Of a stretch of 64,000 nt of DNA, positions 13,967 to 42,625 are shown one piece after another (the stretch's first letter is position 1; every line of letters begins with the position of its first letter). Under the pieces are notes generated by a model that ran no database searches, had not been told where the DNA came from, and saw nothing but the letters and a program-made list of their open reading frames with translations. The position numbers and the translations under genes are program-made. The DNA is taken from the NCBI RefSeq assembly GCF_023055435.1, contig NW_025964001.1, forward strand, positions 35,588,001 to 35,652,000, given 5' to 3'. This DNA is from Haliotis rufescens. Its lineage: Eukaryota.

Positions 13967-14013
<47 letters not shown>

Positions 14014-14267
14014 ATACGCGTGTGTATCGTTTGAACAGTTATAATGACGCCCCATCTAGCACATGATGTAGTTTGCGGTAGACTTTCATAATTGATAATA
14101 ATTGTGATATTTTAGCCGTACTAAAGTCATTTCCATACTTTGGAAGTCATTTGTCAAAATTGAAAGGCATTCTTGAAAGTCCAAACTAATATCACGTGAT
14201 GTTACTAATTGATACAAGATATGAAGTATGTAGAAAGAGCTTCACAATCGTTGGACTTCTCGGAGAA

Positions 14268-15074: not shown

Positions 15075-15162
<88 letters not shown>

Positions 15163-21517: not shown

Positions 21518-21637
21518 TCACGTCGCCTTCATATCCCACTGTTGTTTGGGATTGTTATTGTCACAGTCTGAAAGAAATACTGCGGGTGCACTGGTGAGGC
21601 ACTGATTTAACTCCGGGTGACGGATTAAGCCTGTTTC
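21518..21637 (-). pseudogene. Orphan duplicated terminal exon of the GALNT gene
   Basis: Same peptide as 49555-49674 ([39 protein letters not shown]). The upstream GALNT exons are absent from copy 1. Confidence 0.85.
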
Positions 21638-22085
21638 CTGAAATGATATAAAGGATAATGGTAGCAACATGTGTTGGGTATCCGATGCCCGGAAATTTCA
21701 TATGGAACCGTCAGCCGGATTCACTCATGGAACATTTCCGTGCATTGAATACTTATTGATTCGCAAATCGGAAAACGATTGTATTTTTAGTGAGGATAAG
21801 TTATATGGATGAACAACGTTTCGGTTCTTACACCGTTATCTTGTAAAGAGCGACTGACGGGATCGTCTGGTCAGACTCGCTGACTTGGTTGATACATGTT
21901 ATCGTATCCCAATTGCGTAGTTCGAGGCTCATGATGGCAATCACTGGATTGTCTGGTCCAGATTCAATTATTTACAGACCGCCGTCATATAGCTTGAGTG
22001 CGGCTTTAAACAAGAAAACAAACAAACATTGAGCTGTGACACCACCACTGTACCATGGCGTCCTGACGAATAAACACGGGAAGAG

Positions 22086-22371
22086 TGAGTGTGAGTGAGT
22101 GAGTTGGGTTTAACGCCGCTTTTCACAGTATTCCAGTTATATCACGGCGCGTCAGCTTAATGTGGGAGGAAAGCCCCAAGTGATGCAGGTCTCAGACGTT
22201 TATAAATTCGGTGAAACCCACGAGCAAGGGTATGGTGCTGACAAACCTAGAAACATAATCGGGGCGACCCGGGATTCGAACCCACAATCATAGATTTTTG
22301 GCGAGCCCAAGGAACGCAACCCTGCACAGCGAATCGTGGCGCCTTAGACGACTGGGCCAACCGTGCCCCCG
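22086..22371 (-). mobile_element. Family B SINE
   Basis: Full-length reverse-complement copy with tRNA-like head and (ACTC)n tail. Confidence 0.85.
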
Positions 22372-22982
22372 GAATATTGTTGAGTGCGACATTAAAAACA
22401 CACAAACAAAGGGTTGTTAAACCATATCTGTGATTCGTATATTCGGTAATCACTCATAATGATCAGGTGGTTATAATATGTGATCAGGCTAACTGTGTCT
22501 GATTTGTTTTGTTCATACTATCAACCACTGGTGTACTTAGATCCCCTGGCTCCCAACGTGTGAAGCCCATTTCTGGTGTCCCCCGCCGTGATATTGCTGG
22601 AATATTGCTATTGTATAACTGGTAATATAAAACGGGTCCTGACAAAACAGGGTTGTTACAATTGTTGAACTTGTTATATCCAAACACTAGTATCTCCCAG
22701 GTAGCGGTAGCTTGTTTCTTCACTTAAGATATCGGACCCCTTTTAATCCAGAGTACTTTTAGTTCCGGCCCATGTCAGACAGGCTCGGTTCTTATTCCTT
22801 TCGTATCGGTGTACCGGGGCTGACGAGAAAGGGCGTTTCAGTTTAGAAAAAAAAACAGTGGTCATAAATAATGGGGAAATATTAAATGTAGCTGGTCAGT
22901 TTCTGCTATTGTGAAACAAATATGCAAGACACCGGCTGATATTTACTTGCTCTCAATAACTACCCGATTCTTAACTTAACCC

Positions 22983-24281: not shown

Positions 24282-27064
24282 TGGAACGAATTATTCCCAT
24301 TGGAACCACCCAGTACAAAGCTTCTGTAAAAACTGGAAATCAGGACAAGGCTAGCACGGATTCAAGTGTAACCTTCATAATCCGCGGGGCAAAGGGACAA
24401 GTCGAGCACCTCCTTGACGTTCCACACGTTGATGACTTTCAACAGAACGCTCAGGAGACCTTTACTGTAAGTTGAACTTCGCAGTTGCTTCTGTTTAATC
24501 CTTTTTACAGCTTAAAGGTATATCTTGGTATCAATGTCACATTATGTAGACAACATGATACCGTAGCGCATCAAAGTCTAACTGAACAATAGGCGTCAGA
24601 ATGATAATATATATGATACAGCAATGTTTGGTGTGAAGCATTAAATTCTAGATTTAAAACAGGGTTAAATTTTCAAAAAGTGTTCGCTGGATATCATGAA
24701 CAGAAATGTGTTATAAATTAAATTGATTGACTCCTTCTTTCACAGAGGACAGAAAATTAAACAGATAGGCAGTCTTCACAAAAATCGCTATTATTGTAAC
24801 GAAGGCATATTATGTCTTTGAAGAAGGTACCTTTTTGGTTTGAATGTTTTTTTGTACTTTCCTGGGAGTTTGTTGTGTTTACCAAGCCGATTATGCGGCT
24901 ACATTGCCTTTAATTATCTTTGTGACATGTTTAGTTAGTTGTAGGACTCAACACAGGTGTACCTTTTGGGGGGATTTTTAAGGTTTGAGCTTGTTTTGTC
25001 CATGTTCTTTTTCATGTAATTCTCTTAAATGCATCATTTGTATGTTGACATAATCGCATCTACTATGGCCAGACTGAGGAAGGGGGTATTTGGCATGAAT
25101 GGTTTTGGCATGTGGAGTAAGGCACTAATTTCTTTTCATTATTAAATAAATAATGATGAAAATGAATAAGTGCTTTACTCCTCGGCATTTACACAGAAAA
25201 TATTTTTAATATCAATGCTGACAGCAAGTTTTCTTGAGTGACTTTTTTCACATTGTGAACTATCACTTGTATATTCAGTTGAGTGAGTGAGTAAGTAGGG
25301 TTTTTTAACGCCGCCTTTAACAGCATCCTAGCAATATGACGGCAGTGGACACCAGAAACCGGCATCACACATAGTACACATGAATCGAACCCAGGTCATC
25401 GGCATAACGAGCGGACGCTTAAAAAACTAGGCAACCCCACCGCCGCTTCAGGTGAGCCGCAGTGCCGTGTCACTAATGTTTACATCTGAACATGTTGTAC
25501 AAAAGGTTGTTTGTTTTTAAACAGTATTTTCCAGAAAGTTATCTCTTTGATTCTGTATTATCTAAAGGTTGTTGATTTGTCCACCATGCTGTTGGATTGG
25601 CAGGTGATGATAGGTTAACTGGATCGGATGGTCAGGCTCGGGGACATGGTTGATGGCTTGTCATCGTAAGGCGTTGTACACGATATTAATGATTTATCTG
25701 ACTTGGATTATGTTGAGGCCTCGAATATTATTATTGCTTACTGCGACCATAGGCAACAAAGAAATAAACTAAAAATACTTCAGTAAAATTAAACTTTCTC
25801 TCTCTGTGATGAAACATCGGTAACTGAAACCATTTCATTAACAATTCATTTGAAAGTAACGTCAGTGATCTGTTTGAACAATATTGTTAGCTATGAATTA
25901 TTGTTTGTTATTCATTAGTATATGTGTATATACCCAATCATCTGCAACCAAGGATGATAATGATTATGTTCATCAACCAACTCAGATTCTATTTATTTTT
26001 CGTTTCTAGTTTAACGAAAAGGACGTTGGACACATAGTGGATTTGAGACTTCATGTTGTCAGATTTGGATTTGACCCTGCCTGGTATTGCGAAAAGGTAA
26101 TTCTTCTTGGAAAAAAATACATATTTGCTAAATGTTTTCTTGTTTTTTTTCAAGAACTTTAGCTTTCCAACCAACACTCCATTATTGAGAAGTTCATAAG
26201 TTAGATTCTGGATGCAAATGGAATTTCCTTGATCTTGGAATGAACACTGTCAGCATCCCCATTGCAAAATACAACAATGATCAGGACAAATTAAAAATCT
26301 CAGTGATTAAAGAGTCAGCTCGGAAGTAAGTGCTTATAACATTCTTATTAAGGTAGCTCATACGCACATCACCTTTTCTTTCAAAGTTGTACCGCACTGG
26401 ACAAATGTTTTCCCAACCAGAAGTGATATTATTAAACTGGAAGTGTTTATTATTTTGTTTATCAAGGTAGCTAGAGGCACAGTATTGTGGTACTCGGCCT
26501 CCGTTGTGGATTAGAATTTATGGATGACTAATTTCTTTATTACAATGAAGAGCGACGTTTCGGTGTAGGTTTAACACCGTTATCAAGCAAGTGATACGTG
26601 TCAGGTTAACGTGAGGAGCAAGTCCTTAACTGACGCAGGTCATAGAAGTTTACAACTTTGGTGAAATCAACGTATGTTGGTGACAAAGGATTATAATTTG
26701 GACAAATATAAGATCTGGGGAGACAAGGGTGTTAATCGTGTTACCGAAAAAGATCAGCGGATCATGACACGACTAGGAGACGATTCTGTACGGCGAATTG
26801 AGATGCCTTCTGTGCTAAAGATGACCATGCTTGGCAACTTGATGATCATTAATTAATGCATTAGGAAAAAAATTCGAGCCTGATACCTTGACTGAAATAT
26901 AGCAGAAATAATACGCTTGTTATTACGCCTTTGAAGCAGTGTCATATCATCATTTATCGTTTCATTCCATTCAGATGATGTTAACAACTCATACACACGA
27001 GAAGTTTGGCATCAAGACAAGTATGTATATATACAAGATAAAAAACAAAAATATCTTCTTTTAA
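24282..27064 (+). pseudogene. Gene A copy 2: 5'-truncated PLAT gene with a deletion in the last exon
   Basis: Exons 24282-24466, 26010-26096 and 26975-27064. The Thr-rich exon lies outside the duplication and is missing. About 100 bp of the terminal exon is deleted, giving MMLTTHTHEKFGIKTSMYIYKIKNKNIFF*. Confidence 0.8.
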
Positions 27065-28454
27065 AATGTACGTAATGTTTACAAAACTTTTCTCAATACA
27101 TTTATTTAAAACAAAAGCCCCTCAAATGCACAGGCTTTCCTGATTTGCAAAAACACAAAGTGTACATTTTGAACGAACAATAAATCGGAAACCGGAAACG
27201 ATTAAACCATGCAAATAACAACTGAGGAAGAGCCGATATTAAGATCGGTAAGGTGTCTGCACATTTGGCGTATAATGTAAAATTGGAAGTCCTTGGTATC
27301 AGATCAACAACTATCCAGATGTAAGTCCTGATTATATCATAACCATTGTGGCATACATTACATACTGGACCACATTTACTGTCCCAAATTTACGGCGATA
27401 CCTAACATTTTATTTAATTAATGTTTAGTTCCTGTTTCGTTATCTCCTGCTGTATTCTCACTTATTCGGACCCCTGTTAAACCGGCCACACAGTAGCCCG
27501 GTTTAGACAAATTCCCTTACATAAAAGCGAAAAGAACGTTTTTGTAAATAAAAGCCACTCTTCCCTTCAAGAGCAACATATTTGCTTTTCTATTTTAAGA
27601 AAGCTTATGACTATGTAGTTAGAAATGCATTATTGGATAGAATATCATACGTTGGTGTTGGAGATTAACTGTTGAATGTCTTAATATCTCTATGTAAGGA
27701 TGTGTGCTTTTGCTTTAATGTGAATCCTGGTTTCAAACAGACATAAAGATGACTGTCACAAATACTCTTTTCTGTTGTAAATCACAGTCTTTGCTCGTAC
27801 CATCTTTTCTTGCTGAAAATGAGGACGAATTATGTCTGGTGTTGGATGCAGTTCAAAAATAGTATTGGAGAAGGAAGCGTAATATCAACAGGTTAAAGGT
27901 CAGAGGTTGTACATTTCAGAAACCGGTCCATAGTGCAGACGAAGTATGACTTAATGTTAGAAACAATGTTATAGGGTCAATGAAAAGCTATACCTATCGT
28001 GTTGTACTGTTTACAGAACATCCCGATTATACAGCAATGCAGGCGCAGCTACACAATCGAACAACATGACCCAAGGTTTACTTTTGATTGTATGGTCTCT
28101 CAGGCTTAAAGGTCAGACTTGAATGTCTGAACTGTTAATGCTGTTCAGAATAGGGCAATTAGATTTCTTTTTCTTTGGTCGGTGAAATATTTCCAAAATG
28201 TGATTTGAGATGGATATACAATGTTGTATGACAGTACATAATCATTTCTAGATATTGGTGACGTTTAATGTGTCAAATGGACTGAATATATAATGGATAA
28301 GAAACATACGAATAAAATTAACGATTTCAAAAAAGGAAAGTTGAAGAAAGGGTGTTTTATTGACTTTGAACATGTGTTGAATACACCTTAATGAATTGAC
28401 AAATTAATTTTGTCTTCTGAAACGAAGCGTGTTTGTATTTTATACGTACTTATG

Positions 28455-28883
28455 AGTACGGTCACGTGACCTGCGCATGCACGCGGGGGATGATGGGACC
28501 TGCGCGCGCATCCAAGATGGCGGCCCATCCGTTTCCGGTGGCGCGCGCCTCCAAGATGGCGTTGCATCCGTTTCCGATGGCGTGCGCCTCCAAGAGGACT
28601 GTACCTCCGTTTCCGGTGGCGTGCGCCTCCAAGAGGGCTGCGCATCCGTTTCCGGTGGCGCGCGCCTCCAAGAGGGCGTCGCCTCCGTTTCCGTGGGAGG
28701 AGGAGGAGGGAAGGGAAGGGGTAAAAAACCCAGAGAAGCGGTAGTAAAAGGTGAACAAGAAACGAGTTTTGTTGTTGTTGTTGTTCTAAACATAGAAAAG
28801 GCGGTGGTGGTGGAGGGAGGGAGGAGGAGGGAGGAGGAGTGATGGAGGGAGAATGAGGGAGGTGGGAGGGGAGTCGGGTTCTT
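28455..28883 (+). repeat. Left terminal inverted repeat (77-bp deletion after the terminal AGTA; five 39-bp GC-rich units)
   Basis: Reverse complement of 38327-38800, except for the deletion and the repeat-unit content. Confidence 0.9.
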
Positions 28884-29600
28884 CGTTTTGTTTTGTTTTG
28901 GCTGGTGTGTGGCGATGGCATGTTGAGATGATAGCTTACTGAGACGAGGTTATGATACACAGTCGACGACTCTGCCACTTTGTTGCTAGGTTGACGTCAT
29001 ATCGGCGAAGGATTTTGCAACAACATGTCACAAATCATGTCATCGGGTATGGTGATGTGTTTGTAAACTTTGAGGTGTAAGGTTTCGTTCCACAAGGCGA
29101 TCGTGTATTGTAGCCACTATGACAGTTGTTCGTCTTAGTTAAAAGTCGGTGAGTTGCGAATTTAAAGGTGCTAAAGGTGTTGCCTGAATTCTAAAGGTGA
29201 ATCGACAGGCACAGACATGAATGTGGTGTAGGAATGCAGGAAGCGCTCAGATGTCGATCTTGTTTTGTTTTTTTTGGTTTTTAACTGGGGTTGTGCATGA
29301 CAATTTCCAACCTAAAAAGACAACATAACACTACTATTTGTTCAACTTTTTTTTAATCCCCCGCTCACATGAACCAACACAACAAAACAAAATTTACAGG
29401 ATTAGGGGCGTCCCTGTGATTTTTGTGAACATGAACGTATGTACACGTATGTGAACGTATGTACAGTTTGAAAAAAAAGAACTTTTGCCACTTTGGTAGT
29501 GAACGTATGTACATTCCTAAAACGCAGTGAACGTATGTACACTCCTCAAACAGGAACGTTGACAGTCAGGTGATCGTAGGTTCAGTGAACAAGTGTCAGG

Positions 29601-30178
29601 TCAATAAGGGCAGAAAGGTTGATTCTTTTGATGAAGGGTACGCATCTGGGCACTCAGTCGAAAGGCTGGCATATCATTCACAGGAACGGAGGTAGACACT
29701 TTGGTATGAAACCATGCTAATACCGTGGCATCATTCTTGGCGGTGTCCTTCCAGTCCAACGTATCTGACACTTGATTAAAAGTCCACCCACGCACGCGAT
29801 ATGTCAACATGTAGAGACAGTACACGCCACACAACGTGCTGTATCCATGTTGTAAGGGGCGTGTATTCCATCGTTGTTGAATCTGACCCATGCGATTCAA
29901 TGTCTCTTTAAACAGGGGTAATGAATACAGTCCATAGCTATCCATCATTTCCACGGATCCAGGAACTGGACGATAGATGCTCACCCAGTGTGTGCCAGGT
30001 TGATCGCTTAAATCTGTGTTGACCACGTAGGCTTTTGGGTAAAGGGGTCATCTTGTTGCCACCCCAGTCTGGCAAAGTCATCTCTGGCCAGGGTGCCCCG
30101 GTAGATGGCATGAAGTGGTTCGTCATCAGCCACGAGGGCTTCTAAATCCAAGCTGCTCAACCCGAGTGGTTCATCCAT
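29601..30178 (-). pseudogene. Adenain-like cysteine protease (Polinton PRO)
   Basis: VNTD...PGTHWVSIY (His), MDSYG (Asp), LQ...STLCGVYC (Gln, Cys). The N-terminal part (MDEPLGLSS...) is in another frame, implying a frameshift near 30040. Confidence 0.85.
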
Positions 30179-30230
30179 GTTCCCTTGTAGGAGGAGAAAA
30201 GTGTGGCATGATCGTCTGTCGCTGCTCTTT

Positions 30231-31559
30231 TTATACCATCATCGCATTCCGGAAACGATCTATTTCCAGAACATTTTCGTACTCCTCAAAGCAGATGAGG
30301 GTGACTGGGTTCTCGAGAGCTTGTCCAAACTGGATTTCCAAACCCAGCTTGCCAGTGTGTCGAGGATAGTTAATGCCTTCATCAGCGCCAAGGTCTGGGG
30401 TGAGATCCACCACCCACAAGGTGTAACCCTGAGTAAAGGCATTAGGAGTCAGTTCACAGGTCTCAGGTTGCCATAGCTGCCCCATGTTTCGGAACAGACT
30501 CATGTAGATTTGTTTTAAACTGGCACTGTTGTTGCTGAAGTCACTTTTCATTTCCATCCCATGGACTTCCTGGCCATTGACTTTGAGCTTCATCATGGTG
30601 ACATGGTTGTGTTTGAAGTTGTATGGATTCTTCTCTTTGCTTCCTACATAGGCACTATTGTCCACCAGTCCCAGGACCACGCGTTTTGGTAATTGGCCAC
30701 CGATGAGCTGATCCTTGTGAAAGTCTCTACCATCTGTGGGGATGTCATGGGCTGTCACTCCCACACATGAAAGGGGATACTTGGCAGTCACCCCTGCATT
30801 CAGACTGGACACGTGCGCTTCTCGGACAGCAGGATCGATGTTGAGTTGACGAACATAGAATTCTGCTTTGGTCAGGGCTAGTTTGTAGACACCATCAGCA
30901 GCACACATGAAGAAGAACTCATCGGGACTTCATAGCAATTCCAGTTTCATAGGGACACCATCCAACAGATTGCGTTCTTGAAGAAACAGGTCACAGTGTA
31001 GACGTCCTGTCAGTTCCACTTCTTTGATGGGCACGATAAGATCACGTCGCGTTCTGACACCTGTGTTTCTTACGTTTGCAACTGCATCAGGATTGAAGGC
31101 GTCCATTTTACCAGCACTATTGGTGAACCATCCAGGACATTGAAGGTGAGATGTTTTGGCTCCTGTACCATAACTCAGAAGGGTTTCCAAGTAGGCTCTG
31201 TAAGGGTAAGTGCCCATGGTGGGCGTGATCTCCAACTGATTGTGTCCCACTTGCAGCCGCACTTCGCGAATCAGGGAATGCATCACATTGTTGACTGTCG
31301 ATACAGGGTTATCCGCTAGAACGGTATCTGTGCCATCATCTTTCGTCGCACGTAGACATACTCTCAGGTAGCACTGTTTCAAATCAATGTAAGCATTCAC
31401 GGGATTGGAAATGTTAAACTAGAGTGGTCCTGCCACAGAGGGTGGTGCCAAGGGACTATAGCGAATCCACTGACCCTCTTGCACCGAGGTGGACACAGGG
31501 GGTACAGTAAAGAGATCCAACTGGGCCTTTGAACATTCGCAAGCATCTCGGCGCATCAT
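30231..31559 (-). pseudogene. Major capsid protein (double jelly-roll, Polinton PY/hexon)
   Basis: ECSKAQLDLFTVPPVSTSV start; YPYRAYLETLLSYG, GRLHCDLFLQERNLLDGV, GQLPKRVVLGLV, NPYNFKH, DLTPD, YENVLEID. In-frame TAG at ~31420 and a frameshift at ~30925. Confidence 0.88.
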
Positions 31560-31634
31560 GATGATGGATATTCCTCCCTTTTCTCTGCCTTGAAGGACGT
31601 CTGGTCAGGTTAAAAGGCTGATGAGGACTGGCCT

Positions 31635-32012
31635 TTAAACCATTTTTCTTTTCCTTTTACACTGTTTCTGGTGGGTAATGGTGGTGGTTGGGACGACTTT
31701 ACGTCTTTTAGGGGGTCTCGGCTCCTCACGTTCCTCCAAGACATCCATCAGGGCTGCTGTGCCACGATGTTTCAGACTCTCTGACCATTTGCGTTTGCCT
31801 GCAACCACATCACTCACCAACCCAGGCAGGATCTTTTTACCCATCTTGAGCACCGATGTTCCGGCAGATTTAAGGAAAGGCAACGCCATCTTCAAGATAC
31901 CTCCGAGACCACTGCCACGTTGATGATATCGTCCTTTGTATACTTTGATGCCACTCCCATGCTGGCCAAACTGTCCTCGATTCATCTGGTGTGCCAATGC
32001 GTGTCCCAACAT
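31635..32012 (-). CDS. Small basic Polinton virion/core protein
   Basis: YKGRYHQRGSGLGGILKMALPFLK amphipathic motif of the kind found next to the MCP in Mavericks. K/R-rich C-terminus with NLS-like PPKRRKV; Gly-Gly adenain-type site LGG. Confidence 0.7.
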   Translation of the reverse strand: MLGHALAHQMNRGQFGQHGSGIKVYKGRYHQRGSGLGGILKMALPFLKSAGTSVLKMGKKILPGLVSDVVAGKRKWSESLKHRGTAALMDVLEEREEPRPPKRRKVVPTTTITHQKQCKRKRKMV

Positions 32013-32025
32013 GTTGCTTTTTGCT

Positions 32026-33070
32026 TTAGTAGCGGCGTCTGAAGTGAAGTGTCACGATGGCTTCCCCGATTTGAAATGCCACGGGTCGCCCCGTGTCGTC
32101 CATGATATAGAGTTTAATACCGTCAAAGGAACCATAACGCAGCCCGAGTGAGTGAATGTGCTGAGGGCTTTTAATCACCACACGTCTTGCATCATCTTCT
32201 TTGACACAGGCACGTAGATCAGCAAGTGAGCCATCGTATTGCCCACAATTTGATCTTCGACCAGGTTGGTGTAGATGTACACAGTATCAAATCCTGACAG
32301 ACGATGCGCTTTTGTATCACCTGTGATTTCTACATAGCCACTTGTCATTGGAGTAGCCCCCACTTGCCACTGGGCCAAGGCACTCAAGGGAACGGGCGTC
32401 TCTGTGTAGGTTTTATAGTCCTCCTCGCCGAGGATCGGTAGTTGAACAAATCCAAGCATTCTCAAGAGTGGACTTGGCATGATCACTTCCGTGGAATAGA
32501 GTGGTCCACCAGTATTTCCCATGAGAGGATGATTGATTGCTACTTCTTGAGGGGCTTGGAATCGCACCTTTCCATCTTCAAGCATGTCAAATCGAAGACT
32601 ATCTTTGGGATACATGACATCAATGACAAACCGTCTTCCATCACTTTGGACGCTGTCTGAGGGCTGTTCTTTCAAGACATCCGTAATATGTTCCTGAATC
32701 AAACGGTTGAGGGTTTTCACCAAATCTTCAGATGAATAGACGCCTTTCTCGATTGGAATCTTCTTGCTTTCGTAACAGACGATACCATACTGTGGCTGTG
32801 GTATAGCGCTCCCTGCGCTTTCATACACAAGGGTGTCTTTTTTCAGTTTGAGGTTCAGCGCAAACCAGTCAAAGGGTGGAGCGACGTTGTACCATGTCAT
32901 CGGAAAGTGAATTTCGCTGACGCCCACCTCCAACTGTTGGCGATCCAGATGCAGAGGATAAGGCAACTTGATTTCATACGCATTGACGGTGTTGTTTGGA
33001 TAGATGTCCATGGAGGCATCACTGGGCAGGGTCATGTAAAAGTCTTGTTTCGAAAAAAGGTGGCAGCCAT
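32026..33070 (-). pseudogene. Minor capsid protein (penton, Polinton PX)
   Basis: FYMTLPSDASMDIYPNNT...LEVGVSEIHFP.TWYNV and YIYTNLVEDQIVGNTMAHLL. After a frameshift at ~32180 it continues FDGIKLYIMDDTGRPVAFQIGEAIVTLHFRRRY*. Confidence 0.85.
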
Positions 33071-33081
33071 GATGACGTGAG

Positions 33082-33537
33082 TTAGGGTAGAAAACTCTGG
33101 GTGGATGAGGTATCAAGTTGAAGTCTTCTGGTGGGTGGGGTCGTCGTGGGTGTGCCTGGTGAGGCGGCAAAGGTGGGTGGTGGAAGTATGTATCCCAAAC
33201 AACTGGAGAGCAGGGCTGTCCACAACTGTTTCTCTCCGTGATCCAAGGCCAACTGTACCATGCTTATGATGATCACGCCATATATCACAATGATCTGAGC
33301 AAAAAACACGACTTCACTGCATGGTAAAGTCATGCCAAAACAACACCAAGGTGAGTGTCGGCGCTGGTGATGACGTGGTGCAGCAGCAAGGGGTGGTTCA
33401 TCGGTATGCTGAGAGGCTTCTCTGCAGGGGTGGTGACAGGGGGGGGTGGTTCTGTAATCGCGTGTGTCCACCCTCTGAATGAGTCTGAGAGACAGCATGC
33501 TCCTTAATTTATCTGTAAATGATCTGCAAGGATCCAC
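33082..33537 (-). CDS. Small two-TM membrane protein typical of Mavericks
   Basis: EVVFFAQIIVIYGVIIISMVQL...LWTALLSSCLGYILPPP. True start uncertain. Confidence 0.6.
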   Translation of the reverse strand: MDPCRSFTDKLRSMLSLRLIQRVDTRDYRTTPPCHHPCREASQHTDEPPLAAAPRHHQRRHSPWCCFGMTLPCSEVVFFAQIIVIYGVIIISMVQLALDHGEKQLWTALLSSCLGYILPPPTFAASPGTPTTTPPTRRLQLDTSSTQSFLP

Positions 33538-34670
33538 GAATTAAAACTGGCAGGGTAGCCAGTCCATTTCACCAAGACCTCTTCTTGACCCTGTTTTGGT
33601 CCTGGACGTCTTTTCAGCACGCGATCCACGGCATACACATCGTCTGCTTTCAAGATGGGTTGTATTTCTTCAGGGTAAAAGGTTCCTTGGAGGACTTCAC
33701 CATGATCATCTTTGATCCGGTACACAGGAGGTGTTCTCCCTGTCACCAACCGGTCCATCGTAAACAGTTCAGTGGTCCAATTGGGGAGATAACCTTTCTC
33801 AAAGGTGCCTTTGGTTTTGTTCAGACGTACACGGGTGCCCGGCAGTATAAGAGAGGGGGATCTTGTCTTGGGGGACGACAGTCTTTGTGTTGTTATTTTC
33901 TTTTTGCGCTGCAGCCGTTGTTGTTGTTGTTTTTCCTCCATGTAGTCTAACACCCGAATTTCTGACAGGGGATCTCCTGGGAGGACGTCCACAGGTCGCT
34001 GGCCAATGGTCCGATGCACACGACGCTTGTACGACTTGATCAACTGGGGTAAGACTTTCAAATAGTGTCTGGTCCCATGCTGTGTAAAGTATCGCCACAT
34101 TTTATTTTTCAGAGTCCTTTGAAACCGTTCCACCACGGCTGCATTCGTTTCAGGATTTTGACTTGTGTAGAAATGAATGCCATGCTTCGTCATGAGAGCC
34201 TGGAAAGGACGGTTGACAAATTCTCTGCCTTTGTCTGTTGCAATTGAGCAGGGATTCGACCTTTGGCTTGTTGCATCAGCAAGGTTTGAAAACCTTCGGT
34301 CAAAGCAGAACTGCTCTTGGCCTTCAGGGGTTGCACCCATGCCATCTTTTGAAAACACATCGATCACGCACAGCAGATATTTGAATCCTTGGTTGTCATC
34401 TTGAAAGGCAATCATATCACTCAAGTCTGCTTGCCACAGTTCATCGACCCCTCCCACACGATAGTGGTCTCTCGGAAAGGAGCGTCTGGCTGGTTTGTGC
34501 AAGGTGTAGGTACTTTTGGTTTGCAACCAACGCTTGATTTGACTTTGCGATGGTATGGTTTTCTTCTTGCTTTTACTGGTTCTTGCATCTTAAGCGTGGA
34601 TGCGTGCTGCTTTCCACAAAGGTCGCCAGCCTCCAAAACTTTTTTTTCTTAGGTGGTGCTAAAGGGTATC
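33504..34670 (-). pseudogene. Retroviral-like c-integrase with C-terminal chromodomain
   Basis: SFGG...WLQTKSTYTLHKPARR, WQADLSDM, YLLCVIDVFSK, TDKGREF, AVVERFQRTLK, FEKGYLPNWT.E.F, FYPEEIQ, and a chromodomain (VLVKWTGYPASFNSWI). N-terminal TAA at ~34590 and two compensating internal frameshifts. Confidence 0.92.
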
Positions 34671-34709
34671 CATGAACCTCGCCTGTTGATGAATCTGTCC
34701 TGTTTGGTA

Positions 34710-35513
34710 TCAGATGGAGTCGGGGTCATCAACCATGGGGTTGGCATCACATCTTTTTCTTCTTCTTATGCTTATGGATCCAGCTGCCGCCTCCTTCTTC
34801 TTCTTCTCTCTTTGTGACTTTGTGGGGAGAACGTGGGGTGGGGGAACTGGGTTATGGGTGTTTTTGGTCGGGCGTGAGGATGTTGTTGTTGTTGTTGCTG
34901 CTGCTTCTGCGTCCATTGCCATCGTTGAGGATATCAATCATTTCATGAGGGACATGACTTTTGGCCAAATGGTGACCCAAAATGGTCAAACCTGCAGGCC
35001 CCTCTTTGGTTTTCCAGTGACGCACTAAATCGTTTATCAAGTCCACCATGTGTGTGCCAGGGACGGGTTTCCCTTCCACGTTCAGGGTTCCCACTGGAGT
35101 CCAACTCAAGTCGGGATTGTTTTGAATCCTTGTCATCAAATTCATGGCTTTACTGGAACACTCATGACCACTTCGTCTATCACTTGTTGAGGAGGGGCAG
35201 GTCTACCTGTGGTGTCCATCATTGAGGGTGATGGTGGTGGTATTGGTAGCGTCACTTTGGGTAGTAGTGGTTTGATGGCGTTGTTGTTGCTGTTGTTGTT
35301 GTTGTTGTGCTGTTGGCGCTGCAACTCTAGCATGCGTTGCAGCAGTTGGTTGTATTCTTGTTCCTGCATGTGAAAAGGCTGCTGTGACCTCTGCATCAAC
35401 CCGTCCATCTCTTCCAAATTTTGAAGACGTTTCTTTTCCAAGAGAGGGATGTGAAGTGTCTGACTTTGCCATGTGTCTTCAAGCACCAACACCATTTTGC
35501 GTGCGTACTTCAT
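34710..35513 (-). pseudogene. Conserved Maverick protein of unknown function (frameshifted)
   Basis: MKYARKMVLV start, a coiled-coil/Q-N-rich middle, then LSWTPVGTLNVEGKPVPGTHMVDLINDLVRH in another frame. Confidence 0.6.
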
Positions 35514-35562
35514 GGTGGCACACCACACACTGATCCCAACCTTCCTGGTGTCAGACCATTTA

Positions 35563-35893
35563 TTACTTTCCTCCAAACAAGGAGGCTAGGGCAGAACCAA
35601 TAAGAGGGATGAGTCCTCCTAATAATCCTCCTCCATGTTGAAGAAGTTTATGTTTCTTGCTTAGAGGTACTTGTTTTTTACATGAGCGTGTTCAAGACTT
35701 TACCGTGTCGTTGCAAGTTTTGACGTTGAGTCGTGGTCATGGGAATATTGCCTGCATACAAGTTCACCACACATTCACAAAGGGCATGGATGAGATCAGT
35801 GGGAGCATGTTTGAGAATGGCTTTCCGCATAGCTGGAGCAGCAGCACACAAATGACACAGAGTGTGTTTCTGTTTCCTGAGGCACTGAGACAT
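35563..35893 (-). pseudogene. Conserved small Maverick virion protein with an adenain-type LQHGG/G site (frameshift ~35680)
   Basis: RKAILKHAPTDLIHALCECVVNLYAGNIP...LQRH, then in the shifted frame KQVPLSKKHKLLQHGGGLLGGLIPLIGSALASLFGGK*. Confidence 0.7.
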
Positions 35894-35953
35894 CTTTCCT
35901 GCATGGAGGTGTTAGCCTGAATGAGGCACCTGATCTGCAACTTCTCTCTTTTA

Positions 35954-36102
35954 TCAGGCAGTGGCAGGAGGGAGTTGCAACTGTTGATCTGCCTTCTTGG
36001 ACTTTCTTTGGGTCCGCATGTGCACCAATCGTCTGAGAGCATCAGCTTGATACGCATTCATGAGATTTTCATGGGCCTTTACTTTTGGCTTAGTAGACGT
36101 CG

Positions 36103-36133
<31 letters not shown>

Positions 36134-36884
36134 AAGTCGGTGGCGCCTGGTGTTACCCTGTTTGAGGAGTGGTGCTTGAAGATAGTGTTGCCATTGCAAC
36201 AGAATGCGTGTCAAGACCCCTGCAAGTGTTCCACTACCACTACGTTGTATCAGGTAGCCAAGACGTTCATCCATAGGCAGCCGTGGATCGACAATTTTAG
36301 TCAGGATGTCATTATGTCTCTGCAACCACGTCTTATGTTGAGCTTTCAATGGGATGTGCCCTGCTCTCAGGTTTCGCACAACAATCGCAAACCACTGCAA
36401 AAGACGATTTCTTCCTTTGACGGCAAGGGTTGTCGCATCCCTTGTCGGAAAAATAGATGGTCTCTTGTCTTTTTTCTTCTTCTTTCGTGGGGACTCCTGC
36501 TGCTGCAGACGTTGAAAGCGTTGAAGATCGAGTGGGGGCGAGGGTGCAGATGAGAAAGGGTGTTGTTGTTGTTCCTGACGATGCTTGTTCAAGGGTACCA
36601 TTGAAGAGTAAGATGGCCCTGCATTGAAGATCATGTGGTGGCCAGGGTGGCGAGGGTGCTGATGATGTTGAAGGACGTGGTGGTGGCTGCTGCTGACGAT
36701 GCATGTTCACTGGTACCATTGAAGAGGGAGACGATCCTGGTGGTGAAGGAGTCTTGTGAAATGCAGAGGTCACAAGTCCCTGTAGCGATGAGGGGGAGAC
36801 CATACTGTCATAGACATCATTCATCATCTCTTTGTCTTTGTTCTTTCCCTTCGTAGGATGAGCCTGTTTCCGTCTTTGCCCCAT
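35954..36884 (-). pseudogene. Low-complexity basic protein containing a paralogue of the adjacent virion protein
   Basis: Two overlapping ORFs (36333-36884 and 35954-36634) joined across an internal ~120-bp repeat (SSMVPVNMHRQ / SSMVPLNKHRQ). Contains NLRAGHIP...LQRH...LIQRSGSGTLAG. Confidence 0.5.
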
Positions 36885-36949
36885 GATGGATGTAGGACAA
36901 CTGAAGGAAGGTCTGGGAGTTCACCTGCTTTTATGAAAGTCTCTCCATC

Positions 36950-37654
36950 TCATAGGATTGGCACATACACGTGGGGAAATTCGGATCTCGAAAACAGGCG
37001 GGCATGTATGCGATGGTTTTGCAACGTGGTGGGCTTCAAATCCAAGAACAGGTAAGTGTAAGGCCCTCGGGTGGCGTCTTCATAGGCTTCACGCAGAAAA
37101 GGAACTTTGCCTGGAAACACCTGGCGAGCCAGACTGTCGATCTGCGATGCATCTCTCGGATTTTTAAAGAGAACCATGTAGTGAGCATTCAGACTGATGG
37201 TGCGATGTTGCGGCGATTGAGCAAACAAGTTCTGAGTGAGATACAGCACGGATGTACTTCGGTGATGACTTTTCTTGGTGAACCATCGCAGCACTTCCAT
37301 TTCTTCTTCTTTTGGATTGTCCCCAAGCAAATCATCGATTACCAGCCAATGCGGGGCCACCCCTTTTTCAGGTAAGGCACGATCCGCTTCTTTTATGCTC
37401 TGCACAAACTCAAGAGCGACCCCTAAGCGGTCTGCCATCTCTTCCAGCTCATGATGAAGCGGTTGCCATTCACTGTACACCCACACGATGCGATGGTGTG
37501 GCGTATCCAACACCTTGGGGCAATGCATCTGTTCCATACATGATTTCACAAAGGAACTTTTTCCTGATCCCGTGGGTCCCGCAATGAACATCATAAAAGG
37601 ATGGCGTAGGGTCAAAGGGGTGGTCATGACCTCTTCATCATCATGTGATGCCAT
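36950..37654 (-). CDS. A32/FtsK-like DNA packaging ATPase (Polinton ATP)
   Basis: Walker A AGPTGSGKS, Walker B WLVIDD, SHHRSTSVLYLTQNLF, RTISLNAHYMVLFKNPRD, YLFLDL. Frame intact. Confidence 0.93.
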   Translation of the reverse strand: MASHDDEEVMTTPLTLRHPFMMFIAGPTGSGKSSFVKSCMEQMHCPKVLDTPHHRIVWVYSEWQPLHHELEEMADRLGVALEFVQSIKEADRALPEKGVAPHWLVIDDLLGDNPKEEEMEVLRWFTKKSHHRSTSVLYLTQNLFAQSPQHRTISLNAHYMVLFKNPRDASQIDSLARQVFPGKVPFLREAYEDATRGPYTYLFLDLKPTTLQNHRIHARLFSRSEFPHVYVPIL

Positions 37655-37844
37655 CCTGTGTTCTGGCTGACTGACACCAGGCAACTGATCCTTTCAAGCA
37701 TGACCTTTCTCTTTTATCTATTTTTTTTCCCTCTCTCTCCCATGACCCATACAATTTCTTATGAAAAAGATACACAACGGCCAGTCCGATTTAGAAAACC
37801 GGGCTCAGACCAGGTGTCAGAATGGACTCCTCAGCATGATGTGT

Positions 37845-37895
37845 TTTCGACCAATCAGGAAGCAGGGTGTCAGTGCCTCTCCTATAAAAAGAGTG
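37845..37895 (+). promoter_or_regulatory. Candidate Pol II promoter (CCAAT box + TATA box) inside the Maverick
   Basis: CCAATCAG at 37851 and CTATAAAAAG at 37882, ~60 bp upstream of ACCATG at 37943. Confidence 0.5.
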
Positions 37896-37942
37896 AAGCC
37901 ACGCACATCGTCACAGTCCGAGCACTGAAGGAGAGATCAACC

Positions 37943-38203
37943 ATGTCGTCTCGATGCAGCTGTCTGACGTGCCAGACGAACAGTCAACAATGCCTGCGGA
38001 GGAGGAAAGTCTATTCATGGACAATAGTCGGCTACCCACGGGGTGAATCGGAGACGATCCTATCGCAGAGCCAACACTGGTTTAAGAACAAGTCTGAGGC
38101 TATGGCAGCATTACGACAAACTATTCAACGCGGAATTGACATACCCAATTGTTGGGGTGGTCCGTATTATTATCTAGTATCGGGATCAAGGAAAGTAATG
38201 TAA
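37943..38203 (+). CDS. Small Cys-containing orphan protein (86 aa), divergently oriented in the Maverick
   Basis: Open frame MSSRCSCLTCQ...NCWGGPYYYLVSGSRKVM* downstream of CCAAT/TATA. No recognisable family. Confidence 0.5.
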   Translation: MSSRCSCLTCQTNSQQCLRRRKVYSWTIVGYPRGESETILSQSQHWFKNKSEAMAALRQTIQRGIDIPNCWGGPYYYLVSGSRKVM

Positions 38204-38326
38204 TCAAGAAGACAACCCTTGTCCAGCTTGTTTCCAGTTTGTTTTCCAACGGCCCTTTTCAGGGCCACCCATCTCTCCTGAAAGAACGCTTTCATCCTTT
38301 GCTTTGACGACCCTCAAACCCAAACA

Positions 38327-38800
38327 AAGAACCCGACTCCCCTGCCGCCTCCCTCCCTCCCTCCTTCTCCCTCCCTCCCTCCTCCTCCCTCCTCCTCCCT
38401 CCCTCCACCACCACCGCCTTTTCGATGTTTAGAACAACAACAACAAAACTCTTTTCTTGTTCACCTTTTACGACCTCTTCTCTGGGTTTTTCCCCCCTTC
38501 CCTTCCCTCCTCCTCCTCCACCGGAAACGGAGGCGACGCCCTCTTGGAGGTGCGCGCGCCACCGGACACGGAGGCGACGCCCTCTTGGAGGTGCGCGCCA
38601 CCGGAAACGGATGCGCAGCCCTCTTGGAGGCGCACGCCACCGGTAACGGATGAGCCGCCATCTTGGAGGCGCGCGCAGGTCCCATCATGCCCCGCGCGCA
38701 TGCGCAGGTCACGTGACCGGAAGTGACGTCACAGAGGTCACGTGATCCTCTCGACCAATCAGAAGCCAGGAGCGGCCCTGGACCGATGCTACCAACTACT
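38327..38800 (-). repeat. Right terminal inverted repeat (intact end AGTAGT on the minus strand; four 39-bp units)
   Basis: Inverted counterpart of 28455-28883. Confidence 0.9.
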
Positions 38801-40389
38801 CTTATGCTTTGAACAAGGAACAAAGTCACTAAGGTTGAAATGAAAGAATTAAAAAAAATCAAAATGTAACCATGGAACAGAGAAACTATTCTAACTGTTT
38901 AGAGTGGGCACGGGGATCGGGGTGGGGACAGTCCTCTAAGGCGCTGCAATTTTCTGTGCAGAGTTGCGTTCTTTGGCCACGCGATCGTGAGTCCAAATCC
39001 CGGTTCGCCCCGGTTATGTGTCTGGATTTGTCATCATAATACCCGTGCTAGTGGGTTTCATCAAAGTGGTAAACGACTGAAACTTCAACACTTCGGGCTT
39101 TCCTCCCAAGCTGACACGCCGTGATATGAATAGAATACTATTCAAAACAGGGTTAAACACAACACACTCACTCACTCTCTCACCAACTGTTCAGATGAAA
39201 TTGAGAGGAGGGCATCTGTATTGTTTCACCACGGGTGTTTTAAGATGGCAGAAGGGAAGATCCTGGAGAAAATGGTATCTGAATAGATTTTCGTAGTTTT
39301 ATCTTATCTTCCTAGAAGAGTTTATTTTGGATCCACGATTTTGCCGACTGATTTTGGCTAGGTAGATTATTACTTGTATGTATATTTATAAGAGCATAAA
39401 AACTTAAACACACAATGAAATATTTCCAGGGACAACTAGAAAGTGGAGATACAGACTGTTTACATACCTACGTGAGACTTGTGTAAAATGTCGTTCCATT
39501 AGGTGTAACTAAATACTCGCTCTTTCTATAACATAGCCTCAAATGCAGAATTGCACTTTGAGTACGCAAATCATAGATATGATTATTCATGATGTCTTGG
39601 GTTTGGTCTCGATCACATTACCGTGGAGATGACTAATCAATCAGGAATGTGCCTTTCAATGAAACAGGAGACGTCAAGTATTCTCACTGAACTGCTGATA
39701 CTGTCAGATTTTCAGTGATCTAATCATATAATTTTCACCGTTATTTCGGCTTACACGGCCAGTAGTATCTGTTTCGGCAGGTAATACGATTGTATTGATT
39801 CTCTGATGTTGATGTTTCATATTTTCGAATGAGGTCAAGATCTATAGACGTCCCATGAAGAACCAATGTTCAAATCTTTGTTTAATTCGGGACAATCACA
39901 GCAGTTTCCAATCATTAAAGTTGAACTATTGATAACTACCCGAACACCCGTCATATGTCGTTACTTTGTTAAACTTTGTTAAACTTTCAATGAAAGTTTC
40001 ACCATCAAAGGCTTGGTTGCGTCACTTGAGACACTTTCTGGTAGACATTCAGGGGAATGTGCTAAATATGACACTGTTTTGTCAACATAATTCGCGATCC
40101 TTGCTATGACCTTGGCATGGATTTTTCACAACTCCTGACAAACCAGTACTTTGATAACCTGGCGGATCATTCATCGTATTATCAATCATGGTATTGTCAA
40201 ACAGACATGTTTTAATGAACATTGCGTAAAAGGCGGGTCCTACCGGTAGGGCAGGATATGTTTTCCTTTTCCAAATGTCATCGTGCTTGTCAGTGATCCA
40301 TAAATTTCCATCACTAGTTTGCCTGTGACACCCTATGGAATCTGTTTAAGGAGATTTTCGAGACTATTCTCTGGCGTTGACGTTTTGAA

Positions 40390-41790
40390 TTTAAAGTGTC
40401 CATAGTATTCATTGTGGCCATTGGTTTTGTGTGTCCATTGCTCTCAAAGTAACCATGGATGCAGTATGTCAATTACTTTCATTGCTCGTATGGGTTAAGT
40501 TTGTCCATTGCTTTCATTGCCAGCATCGGTTTTAGTGTGTAAATTACTTTCATTGTAAGCATGGATTTAGTGTATCAACTACGTTCAATGTAAGTGTGGG
40601 TTTAGTGTTTCCACGGGTTACACTGTATCAATCGGTTTTAGTGTGTCAGTTACTTCCATTGTAGCCGTGGTTAAGTGTCTCCATGGGTTTTGCTGTAACC
40701 ATAGATTTGAGTGTGCCATTGCTTTCATTGTAGCCAGGGGTGTAGTGTGTCCATCGCTTTCATTGTAGCCATAGGTTAAGTGCGTCCATGGATTTAGTGT
40801 GCCCATTGCTCTCATTGTAGCCATGGGTTTGTGTGTCATTGTAGCCATTGGTTTAGTTTGTCCATTGCTTTCATTGTAGTTATTGGTTTAGTGTGTCCAT
40901 GGGTTTAGTGTGTCATCGTAGCCATTGGTTTAGTGTGTCATTTTAGCCATGGGTTCAGTGTGTCATTGTAGCCATTGGTTTAGTGTGTCCATTGCTTTCA
41001 TTGTAGCCATTGATTAAGTGCGTCCATGGGTTTAGTGTTTCAATTGTTTTTATTGTAGCCATGGGTTTAGTGTGTCCATTGCTTTCATTGTAGCCATTGG
41101 TTAAGTGTGTCCATTGCTTTCATTGTAGCCATTGGATTAGTGTGCCCATTGCTTTCATTGTAACCATTGGTTAAGTGCGTCCATGGGTTTAGTGTGTCAA
41201 TTGCTTTTATTGTAGCCATGGGTTTAGTGTGTCCATTGCTTTCATTGTAGCCATTGGTTAAGTGTGTCCATTGCTTTCATTGTAGCCATTGGTTAAGTGC
41301 GTCCATTGCTTTCATTGAAGCCATTGGTGAAAGTGCGTCCATGGGTTTATTGTGTCCTTTGCTTTCATTGTAGCCATGGGTTTAGTGTTCCAATAGTGTG
41401 TCATCGTAGCCATTGGTTTAGTGTGTCATTGTAGCCATGGGTTTAGTGTGTCATTGTAGCCATTGGTTTAGTGTGTCCATTGCTTTCATTGTAGCCATTG
41501 ATTAAGTGCGTCCATGGGTTTAGTGTGTCAATTGCTTTTATTGTAGCCATGGGTTTAGTGTGTCCATTGCTTTTATTGTAGCCATTAGTTAAGTGCGTCC
41601 ATGGGTTTAGTGTGTCCATTGCTTTCATTGTAGCCATTGGTTTAGTGTGTCCATTGCTTTTATTGTAGCCATTGGTTAAGTGCGTCCATGGGTTTAGTGT
41701 GTCCATTGCTTTCATTGTAGCCATTGGTTTTGTGTGTCCATTGCTTTCATTGCAGCCATGGCTTTTATGTGTCCATTGCTTTAACTTTAA
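40390..41790. repeat. Satellite array, paralogue of 11280-13360
   Basis: Same ~35-bp unit, with a different length and unit order. Confidence 0.9.
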
Positions 41791-42625
41791 CCATTGATTG
41801 TTATTTGCTTTATGTGCACCGATCTGTGCAATTGGGATACGATGACATGCATCAACCAAGTCAGCGAACCTGACCACCCGATCCCGCTAGCCTCCTCTTT
41901 CGACAAGTATGGGTTGCTATTTTCCACCTGGATCTTCACGGGTTCATTGCTATAGTAAAAGTGTCAGAACAAAGAACGAACCCAGATAATACTTTTTTTT
42001 CCAATACCTCTGATATAACTGTATTCTGTTTTACCGTATGGCTTTTACATAGTTATCGTTGATCTAAGATGATGAGGTATAAGATACGTTCATTTTCTTG
42101 AATAATGTATAGAAATGAAATCATTGCCAATAACGTAGAGCTAAATGATAATCTAAGTGGCCCATAAATCCATTCCCAATATCCGAACATTCACATAAGC
42201 CATAACGATAAGTACCAGCGAGTGCATTAGGGCCTAAATTACTGTCACCCTCGAAACCAAGATGAAGGAGTTCAGCGTTTCTCGCCTGCAACAAGCCCAC
42301 GACGAGCCTGAGAAGCAAGAAGCGACAGACATAAACGAGTAAGGAAGGTGATGTAATGCGTGCGTGCGTGCGTGCGCGTGTGTGTCGTTTAAACAGTTAT
42401 AATGACGCCCCATCTAGCACATGATATAGTTTGCGGTAGACTTTCATAATTGATTATAATTGTGATATTTTAGCCGTACTAAAGTCATTTCCATACTATG
42501 GAAGTCATTTGTCAAAATTGAAAGGCATTCTTAAAAGTCGAAACTTATATCACGTGATGTTACTCAGTGATACAAGATATGAAGTATGTAGAAAGAGCTT
42601 CACAATCGTTGGACTTCTCGGAGAA

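Follow-up and report, generated by a model that had tools for sequence, protein, structure and literature searches.

Origin of a polymerase-less element in an abalone genome

In the 64-kb stretch of Haliotis rufescens DNA analysed here (the window), positions 28455-38800 hold a 10.3-kb element with a Polinton virion module and integrase, in which no polymerase gene (pPolB) was found. The question raised by this locus is whether such an element moved in this form, with a polymerase supplied by a helper, or whether it is the remains of a complete element. The sequence-only reading of the window had posed this as a choice between deletion and a helper-dependent satellite. Our analysis indicates that the element is most likely a fossil deletion derivative and not a new kind of helper-dependent virus, with the loss of pPolB after insertion as our main reading (probability roughly 45%). 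Deletion is at least as likely as the other choice. Helper-dependence before insertion has an insect precedent (bioRxiv 10.1101/2025.02.07.637071).

Insertion site and termini

The boundaries and non-coding parts of the element, together with its empty insertion site, are as follows:

9925-9930: the insertion site in its empty state, a single CTTATG without insertion in the second copy of the host duplication
28449-28454: left target-site duplication, CTTATG
28455-28895, plus strand: left terminal inverted repeat (TIR); its terminus is AGTA alone, after which 77 nt are missing; 39-bp array at 28502-28693, 4.9 copies
28896-29600: non-coding left arm, 705 bp, in which a 14-15 bp motif occurs four times (29432-29541)
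38204-38314: 111-bp spacer from ORF167 to the right TIR, by gene order and spacing the most likely slot of the missing pPolB
38315-38800, minus strand: complete right TIR with ACTACT at its end; its 39-bp array has 4.0 copies (38518-38676)
38801-38806: right target-site duplication, CTTATG

The insertion is genuine. A tandem near-duplicate of about 19.5 kb lies inside the window, and its two host copies align on both flanks of the element (8542-9930 with 27033-28454, and 9925-11044 with 38801-39982). The perfect 6-bp target-site duplication described earlier is thereby confirmed: because the aligned host duplicate has one CTTATG and lacks the element, the occurrence of this hexamer on both sides of the element is not due to chance. 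The host duplicates differ at 404 of 10135 sites (4.0%). Beside the site, the element-bearing copy is short of 81-654 bp that the other copy has at four of the five block junctions checked, the fifth being the element itself.

An assembly artefact, in which the pPolB arm of a repetitive element would have been collapsed or two haplotypes would have been placed in tandem as host copies, is very improbable. An N gap at 43314-43494, the near-duplicate and the repetitive nature of the family are what such an error would draw on. However, the element itself contains no N or break, the target-site duplication and the empty site are concordant, and the in-frame stops are substitutions. Moreover, the insertion would be real even if the host copies were haplotypes.

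The TIRs measure about 440 bp (left) and about 490 bp (right), with a 39-bp array in each. The earlier statement that both ends are present holds for the TIR pair and for the complete right end, whose ACTACT motif matches Polinton ends (PMC8097293), and fails for the left terminus, where positions 5-81, as numbered against the right end, are missing. The TIR pair differs at 32 of 396 sites (8%), exceeding the 4% of the host (P about 0.001), and chimeric ends were considered on these grounds. This idea was dropped, as 8 of 148 sites differ outside the 39-bp array and purine runs (5.4%; P 0.24 against 4%, 0.03 against 2.5%). The left arm gave no Pfam match below E 0.06.

Gene content

From right to left, the genes of the element are:

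37700-38203, plus strand: ORF167, open, 167 aa, head-to-head with the ATPase gene
36950-37654, minus strand: A32/FtsK-like packaging ATPase, open, 234 aa, with Walker A and Walker B (Pox_A32 E 3.5e-5)
35954-36884, minus strand: low-complexity accessory gene with an internal duplication, in two overlapping frames
35563-35893, minus strand: PM / cupiennin-like small gene, one presumed frame switch near 35690
34852-35513, minus strand: PZ-position gene, one presumed frame switch near 35145, named from gene order (PMC8097293) and from family motifs
33504-34673, minus strand: integrase of the retroviral type (rve, E 1.9e-8) that carries a chromodomain at its C-terminus (Chromo, E 9.4e-8)
33082-33498, minus strand: probable membrane protein, small and hydrophobic, open, 138 aa
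32026-33035, minus strand: probable penton (minor capsid protein), judged by its position and by family motifs, one presumed frame switch between about 32175 and 32286
31635-32012, minus strand: open gene for a basic core protein of 125 aa at the PW position, named from gene order
30231-31559, minus strand: major capsid protein of the double jelly-roll type; of its 442 codons, numbers 47 and 210 are in-frame stops
29601-30178, minus strand: adenovirus-like maturation protease with His, Asp and Cys motifs (Peptidase_C5 E 0.046), one presumed frame switch near 30040

The gene list given by the sequence-only reading stands for the ATPase, the integrase, which also carries a chromodomain, the major capsid protein and the protease. 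The names penton, core, membrane protein, and PM and PZ for the small virion genes, are ones that we assume from gene order and family motifs; none was confirmed by a library search. That all genes lie on one strand is correct except for the plus-strand ORF167, and the minus-strand accessory gene at 35954-36884 had been omitted.

At 92% identity, the capsid protein matches a gene model of Haliotis cracherodii. Its structure model (pLDDT 83) has a double jelly roll fold, for which the best Foldseek matches were the capsids of Sputnik, iridovirus, PBCV-1 and mavirus (top E 1.4e-15). PDB sequence searches with the capsid returned no match, and fold comparison alone succeeded. The core protein matches parts of the abalone gene models P0159 and P0152 at 87% and 97%, and in both its gene adjoins the capsid gene as it does in the element. 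The top matches of the ATPase were at 71% and 48%, and the PM / cupiennin-like gene weakly matched the tail of the ATPase gene model P0065 (E 0.004). For the penton, by its position a candidate for the single jelly-roll minor capsid protein, the best Pfam match had E 0.19, with no match in NCBIfam and PHROGs, and the accessory gene had no informative family match in these three libraries. Judging from the cupiennin-like gene, we take the virion module to be probably that of a Beta-type adintovirus (Starrett 2021, PMC8502044).

Decay of the element

About seven of the 11 genes look broken, namely those for capsid, integrase, penton and protease and three small genes. The frame switches in the penton, the protease and the three small genes are presumed from family motifs. 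In the integrase, two apparent stops fall in the first 30 codons and a stretch at about 34235-34345, in the core, appears out of frame; this break is placed only by family motifs and by the 35 positions missing between the IS481 matches at 88-159 and 195-282, and no integrase model matched the out-of-frame piece when searched alone. The sequence-only reading had overlooked the decay of this copy, with its two capsid stops, the genes that look broken and the loss in the left TIR. The proposal of an element that makes its own capsid and integrates does not apply to this copy in its present state, given the damage to its capsid, penton, protease and integrase genes and its shortened left terminus.

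Decay was estimated from stops and from frame breaks at about 1% each (95% range 0.3-3%). The capsid carries 11 private differences in 279 conserved columns, compared with 6 in 274 for its closest relative. Because the decay of the element lies within the 4.0% divergence of the duplicates, an insertion after the host duplication fits these values.

Absence and presumed former position of the polymerase

pPolB is absent, as had been noted before. The HMM search suggested at that time was carried out with DNA_pol_B_2 and with helicase/primase models, giving no match in the six frames of the element or in the 12 frame readings of the two candidate junctions; a divergent stub of less than about 40 codons, or a terminal-protein/OTU part perhaps outside the Pfam model, could be missed by it. 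Scanning for pPolB motifs returned isolated chance matches of 5-6 residues only. A substitute replicase (SF1/SF3 helicase, primase, PolA) was found neither in six frames nor in any of the 15 ORF pieces, where only weak P-loop matches of the ATPase appeared. Furthermore, none of 271 proteins compared had a pPolB motif, and thus no gene model fuses the ATPase or the capsid to a polymerase.

The sequence-only reading had noted about 700 bp between the protease and the left TIR. This spacing is right (705 bp), but by gene order a pPolB slot there is less likely, and the empty slot more likely lies between ATPase/ORF167 and the right TIR. The pPolB-to-integrase distance expected here would be 3.0-3.6 kb. 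For abalone, a published table lists 169 rows with pPolB and integrase from three assemblies, 24 of them with a high-scoring integrase (PMC10748475 Suppl. Table 3). The integrase is downstream of pPolB in 23 of these 24, with 8 of them at 1.9-3.5 kb; the table gives no integrase strand, and a convergent arrangement may underlie 10 of the 23 spacings (4.9-6.8 kb), which leaves a slot beside the protease some probability. The leading candidates for the full-length parent in this table are two H. rubra rows, QXJH01000122.1 (119807-127608, spacing 3477 bp) and QXJH01000445.1 (3120 bp).

ORF167 is open and located at the expected position of pPolB, so that it could be imagined as an unrecognised replication factor of the element itself, e.g. 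a free-standing terminal protein or an origin-binding protein. Its tail, with a predicted strand-helix-strand and Gly-Pro-Tyr near the end, is loosely like the terminal-protein fold (PMC11161782). However, no significant relative was found in the homologue search, Pfam, NCBIfam or PHROGs, and the best ESM Atlas values (0.81 and 0.83) are at chance level. The single-sequence model is poor (pLDDT 37.6), a fold search with it had 0 matches at E <= 0.001, and a polymerase or helicase would be a far longer protein. We consider this the least probable of all explanations.

Probable loss of the polymerase after or before insertion

According to our main reading, the parent would have been a full-length abalone Polinton (Maverick/adintovirus-type), copied by its own terminal-protein-fused pPolB. 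The rve integrase would have inserted this parent into one of the two duplicated host segments, which created the 6-bp duplication. Decay without selection would have followed, with stops and frame breaks accumulating and the left terminus losing 77 nt, and a multi-kilobase deletion from ORF167 to the right TIR would have taken the arm with pPolB. The present copy would be unable to replicate, build a capsid or integrate.

The many broken genes and a decay of about 1% within the 4.0% of the host argue for such a loss after insertion. The copy is also prone to deletion, both in its left TIR and at the neighbouring host junctions, and pPolB-bearing elements with integrase are numerous in abalone assemblies, 8 of the 23 with a downstream integrase having about the expected spacing. 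On the other hand, pPolB was lost cleanly: nothing of it is seen, the ATPase and ORF167 are open, the inner edges of the TIRs are intact, and the spacers are just 111 bp (right) and 705 bp (left), whereas a random deletion would often leave a stub. In addition, the neighbouring host deletions are below 1 kb and at least 4 kb would be needed. The apparently amplified PolB-lacking Polintons reported in Pieris, the multiple copies of the capsid family in abalone (clusters with 14 and 18 members) and the finding that no row of the PMC10748475 table could be tied to the element's family by sequence also weigh against it.

The clean loss, with neighbours and TIR inner edges intact, points instead to a polymerase arm lost before insertion, which we regard as a possible though less probable course of events. 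A deletion variant with both TIRs would have been copied in trans, a full-length sibling providing terminal protein and polymerase. Resembling a defective interfering genome, it would have integrated and later decayed, belonging to a short-lived non-autonomous subfamily and not to a lasting lineage. Candidate helpers are the pPolB and integrase elements listed for abalone genomes; because the terminal protein is predicted as part of pPolB (PMC11161782), one helper gene would supply both functions. Precedents come from Pieris mannii, where two TIR-flanked polB-lacking polintons occur beside complete relatives and a further group has polB replaced by an LTR element, both sets being interpreted as still active (bioRxiv 10.1101/2025.02.07.637071). 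Against this, the variant is known from one copy, the loss of most of the terminal motif at the left end requires a separate deletion, and Anolis has no apparent non-autonomous Polinton copies (PMC3014272).

Relatives in abalone

The capsid relatives form an abalone-specific group with 69-92% identity, falling to about 40% outside it. Annotated abalone capsid genes named 'F54H12.2-like' (P0152, P0153, P0154, P0157, P0159, P0160) are of the same family as the element's capsid (50-92% identical). In P0153 and P0159 internal stretches are missing, which is what splicing of a gene model around breaks would produce.

This group, the compact layout on nearly one strand, and the small share of pPolB-linked rows with the element's integrase class (13 of 125 and 8 of 41 per assembly; PMC10748475 Suppl. 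Table 3) in a family that looks multi-copy would suit a stable, Haliotis-wide polymerase-less lineage. Such a satellite-like lineage would keep its capsid, packaging and integrase genes under selection, while another Polinton or a virus would supply terminal protein and polymerase. In its extended form, the element would be a decayed member of a long-lived lineage with the protease, too, under purifying selection, the helper would be a co-resident endogenous Polinton, and ORF167 possibly a recruiter of the helper's polymerase. We judge both forms unlikely. As a rule, a protein-primed origin is matched with the polymerase it belongs to, and no intact polymerase-less copy was seen. Also, decayed full-length copies are absent from the PMC10748475 table because it requires a long open pPolB.

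The Jeong table (PMC10748475) has no rows for GCA_022045235, GCA_022045225 and GCA_023055435, and the adintovirus supplement has 0 entries for Haliotis, abalone or Mollusca. A GTDB bacterial/archaeal scan for relatives yielded 13 pattern matches that come down to one locus, a 926-bp contig without neighbours.

As a lone dead copy the locus is of little weight: degraded Polintons are normal, accounting for 96% of loci in a vertebrate survey (PMC8097293), and polB-lacking ones are already known from insects. It is useful as a test case with clear bounds: the insertion is dated, an empty site lies close by, and the family is multi-copy in public chromosome-scale abalone assemblies. Polinton surveys such as PMC10748475 are unable to count polymerase-less members because pPolB is their starting point. 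Sister copies with the same junction would indicate trans-replication of protein-primed elements in a mollusc, and intact polymerase-less copies recurring across species would indicate a satellite of an endogenous virus.

Comparison with known systems

A Polinton origin of the element is supported by the features shared with Polintons/Mavericks (Barreat & Katzourakis 2021, PMC8097293): TIRs of about 450 bp, the ACTACT motif at the right end, the 6-bp target-site duplication, an rve-chromo integrase, an A32-like ATPase, a double jelly-roll capsid and the protease. The gene order, with ATP-PM-PZ and INT-mCP-PW-MCP-PRO modules and the penton as candidate mCP, is shared as well, both modules lying on one strand as in X. 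tropicalis. Unlike intact Polintons, the element lacks pPolB, has a shortened left terminus and most of its genes broken, and measures 10.3 kb against 12.7-24.6 kb for intact vertebrate Polintons (PMC8097293).

Polinton-like viruses and Tlr1 likewise have a double jelly-roll capsid module without pPolB, and Tlr1 also an rve integrase. However, they possess a substitute replicase (helicase, primase-helicase, PolA; PMC11161782), which was not found in the element, and the element's capsid is, unlike theirs, of the animal Polinton type. The polB-lacking polintons of Pieris mannii (Pannagram) resemble the element in being TIR-flanked, without polB and with virion genes kept; for them and for the LTR-replaced group, complete relatives are present in the same species. 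The Pieris elements are multi-copy with LINE or LTR cargo, whereas the abalone element is cargo-free, has a mollusc host and is known from one locus.

Insertion into one copy of a duplicated host segment

The element (28455-38800) is flanked on both sides by CTTATG. Comparison of the window with itself showed that a host segment of ~19.5 kb occurs twice, at roughly 4162-21840 and 23620-49877. The first host copy aligns with both flanks of the element and there contains a single CTTATG (9925-9930). Therefore, the CTTATG pair is a genuine TSD, left by insertion of the element into one of the two host copies, in agreement with the 6-bp TSD described in the sequence-only reading. As the host flanks match this empty duplicate, nothing has been displaced directly outside the TIRs. 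Between these host copies, 404 of 10135 aligned sites differ (4.0%) and indels are numerous. The pair may reflect a genuine tandem duplication or two haplotypes placed one after the other, and either way one copy has the empty site.

Features in and around the element
2127-3194: presumably a Tc1/mariner-like transposase, interrupted by a stop
10013-10290, 22087-22450, 38906-39188, 44182-44458, 51057-51417, 54331-54690 and 62301-62564, both orientations: seven copies in the window of a dispersed SINE- or MITE-like repeat (~260-360 bp)
11677-13346 and 40522-41783: large minisatellite with 17-, 35- and 52-bp periods, one per host copy
14190-14897 and 42440-43267: duplicated host ORF, which we take to encode a Cys-rich PAN/apple-like stretch and a Ser/Thr/Pro-rich tail
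38315-38800: right TIR, ending in ACTACT
43314-43494: assembly gap of 181 N within the second copy of the duplicated host gene region

ACTACT is given as the most frequent Maverick end motif in the text of PMC8097293. The left TIR retains AGTA and the next 77 nt are missing; a 39-bp array lies inside both TIRs alike. The left junction (28445-28459) reads GTACT-TATG-AGTAC, a 5-bp inverted pair spanning the TSD, which is possibly due to chance or a repair trace at the truncated left end. The TIRs differ at 32 of 396 sites, a seeming excess of divergence that was rejected, being mostly gone outside repeats (8/148). One dispersed-repeat copy lies 100 bp from the right end of the element, and its counterpart is present at the empty site. 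CpG observed/expected was 0.59 in the element core (29601-38203), about 1.0 in the TIRs and 0.80-0.88 in the host flanks.

Gene content and decay

Read from the right, the minus-strand genes begin with an ATPase, a low-complexity accessory gene and the PM-like and PZ-like genes. Next come the integrase, a gene for a small hydrophobic protein, the probable penton and a basic core protein, and the series closes with the major capsid protein and the protease. The labels PM, PZ, penton, core and membrane protein are our assumption, taken from gene position and family motifs. ORF167 (37700-38203, 167 aa) is on the opposite (plus) strand, in head-to-head orientation to the ATPase; the packing on one strand proposed earlier thus holds from ATPase to protease and fails for ORF167.

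The ATPase matches Pox_A32 and has 5725 relatives at E <= 0.001 (best 71% identical). A Polinton-type packaging ATPase, 42% identical, was also seen on a 926-bp contig of a SUP05 bacterial assembly (L001:188-760, the single locus from a scan of bacterial and archaeal genomes), probably a eukaryotic or viral contaminant. In the case of the integrase, Pfam matches to rve and Chromo were obtained. The capsid protein, with X at its two stops, gave a good predicted fold (pLDDT 83) matching Sputnik, iridovirus, PBCV-1 and mavirus capsids. The protease has a weak Pfam match and retains its His, Asp and Cys motifs. Downstream of it, four copies of TGAACGTATGTACA (29432-29541), a motif absent from the rest of the window, are possibly a regulatory or binding site.

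The nearest capsid proteins are abalone gene models: H. cracherodii at 92% (14-sequence cluster) and 77% identity, H. rufescens at 88% across 56% of the length and H. asinina at 73% (18 sequences), the same gene possibly being counted more than once in these clusters. Nine matches range from 50 to 92%, after which identity drops to about 40%. These matches point to a Haliotis host. Core and capsid proteins are fused in two abalone gene models, so that core/capsid adjacency is common to the element and those copies.

Comparison with the 92%-identical relatives places stops at codons 47 and 210 of the capsid gene. In the integrase, two stops appear to lie close to the start and part of the core is out of frame, and the penton, protease, PM, PZ and accessory genes each appear, from the sequence, to contain one frame switch. 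Open frames persist in four genes: those for the ATPase, the hydrophobic protein and the core protein, and ORF167. The sequence-only reading overlooked this decay, and its picture of an element that makes its own capsid and integrates does not apply to the present copy. Four stops over about 7900 coding sites correspond to ~1.2% decay (0.3-3.0%), and the seven frame breaks, once scaled to the indel rate of the host, to about 1% (0.4-2.2%). Both figures are rough, as the frames of some segments were assigned by eye and assembly errors may account for part of the frame breaks. Decay of ~1% fits an insertion later than the host duplication.

Absence and probable former position of the polymerase

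Six-frame Pfam scans of the element recovered rve, Chromo, Pox_A32 and Capsid_N, and no DNA_pol_B_2, helicase or primase, although a remnant of a few dozen codons might escape. The six-frame HMM search proposed earlier upheld the absence of pPolB. Nothing relevant was found in twelve frame readings of two candidate junctions, and a pPolB motif scan gave isolated short matches only. On the minus strand, a 41-codon reading (38173-38313) begins at an ATG just inside the right TIR and overlaps the end of ORF167; it may be what the deletion left of a gene, and has no identifiable relative (E 0.035 to an unnamed PHROG). Misassembly as the origin of the missing gene is improbable.

Vertebrate Mavericks, as described in the text of PMC8097293, have the modules pPolB-ATP-PM-PZ and INT-mCP-PW-MCP-PRO, which share a strand in X. 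tropicalis. Because the element carries the other seven genes in this order, the empty pPolB slot probably lies upstream of the ATPase. Between ATPase and right TIR there is ORF167 plus 111 bp, and nothing else; that ORF167 has a hidden replication role is very improbable.

GCA_003343065 is presumably H. rufescens. Supplementary Table 3 of PMC10748475, which tabulates pPolB genes linked to integrases, has 125 rows for GCA_003343065, 41 for H. rubra and 3 for H. laevigata, and the supplement legend names an H. rufescens pPolB2. From these rows we retained 24 and left out the 145 whose integrase scored below 280, most of them a pPolB directly next to a shorter integrase; judging from its length, the integrase of the element would belong to the kept class (at least 280). 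In this table, which is without integrase strand and has no row tied by sequence to the element's family, the integrase lies downstream of pPolB in 23 of the 24 kept rows, at 1.9-3.5 kb in 8 and 4.9-6.8 kb in 10, the expectation for the element being 3.0-3.6 kb. These abalone rows suggest that likely parents or helpers exist in abalone.

Timing of the presumed loss

An intact Polinton would be copied by pPolB carrying its own terminal protein, a role predicted from models for the N-terminal domain in the text of PMC11161782. The ATPase would load the copied DNA into a DJR capsid that the protease matures, and the integrase would carry out the insertion. The element is a product of integration for which the means for every step are now gone. 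We tentatively favor loss of pPolB after insertion (probability roughly 0.45), based on the general decay, the TIR deletion and the missing host stretches, 81-654 bp being absent from the element-bearing host copy at 4 of 5 junctions checked. Loss before insertion is a possible though weaker candidate: there is no pPolB remnant, the neighbours are intact, the spacers are very short, and no multi-kilobase host deletion occurs near the element. A stable satellite lineage without polymerase, raised earlier beside a pPolB deletion, is unlikely. The polymerase-less insertion is real and its limits are well defined, but one decayed copy is insufficient to show a satellite virus.

Comparison with known elements

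No report of a polymerase-less or non-autonomous mollusc Polinton was found, most subscription journals and Repbase lying outside the coverage. In Pieris mannii, TIR-flanked polintons without polB occur beside complete relatives, and in a second group polB is replaced by an LTR element (Pannagram, bioRxiv 10.1101/2025.02.07.637071); the closeness of this precedent is judged from the preprint's text, and its figures and supplements may bear on it. That text reads the polB-lacking polintons as still active and questions their means of movement. PLVs and Tlr1 also lack pPolB but carry other replicases, according to the text of PMC11161782. Since the element lacks pPolB, the strict Polinton criterion, it is classed as a defective insertion derived from a Polinton, which is not a new kind.
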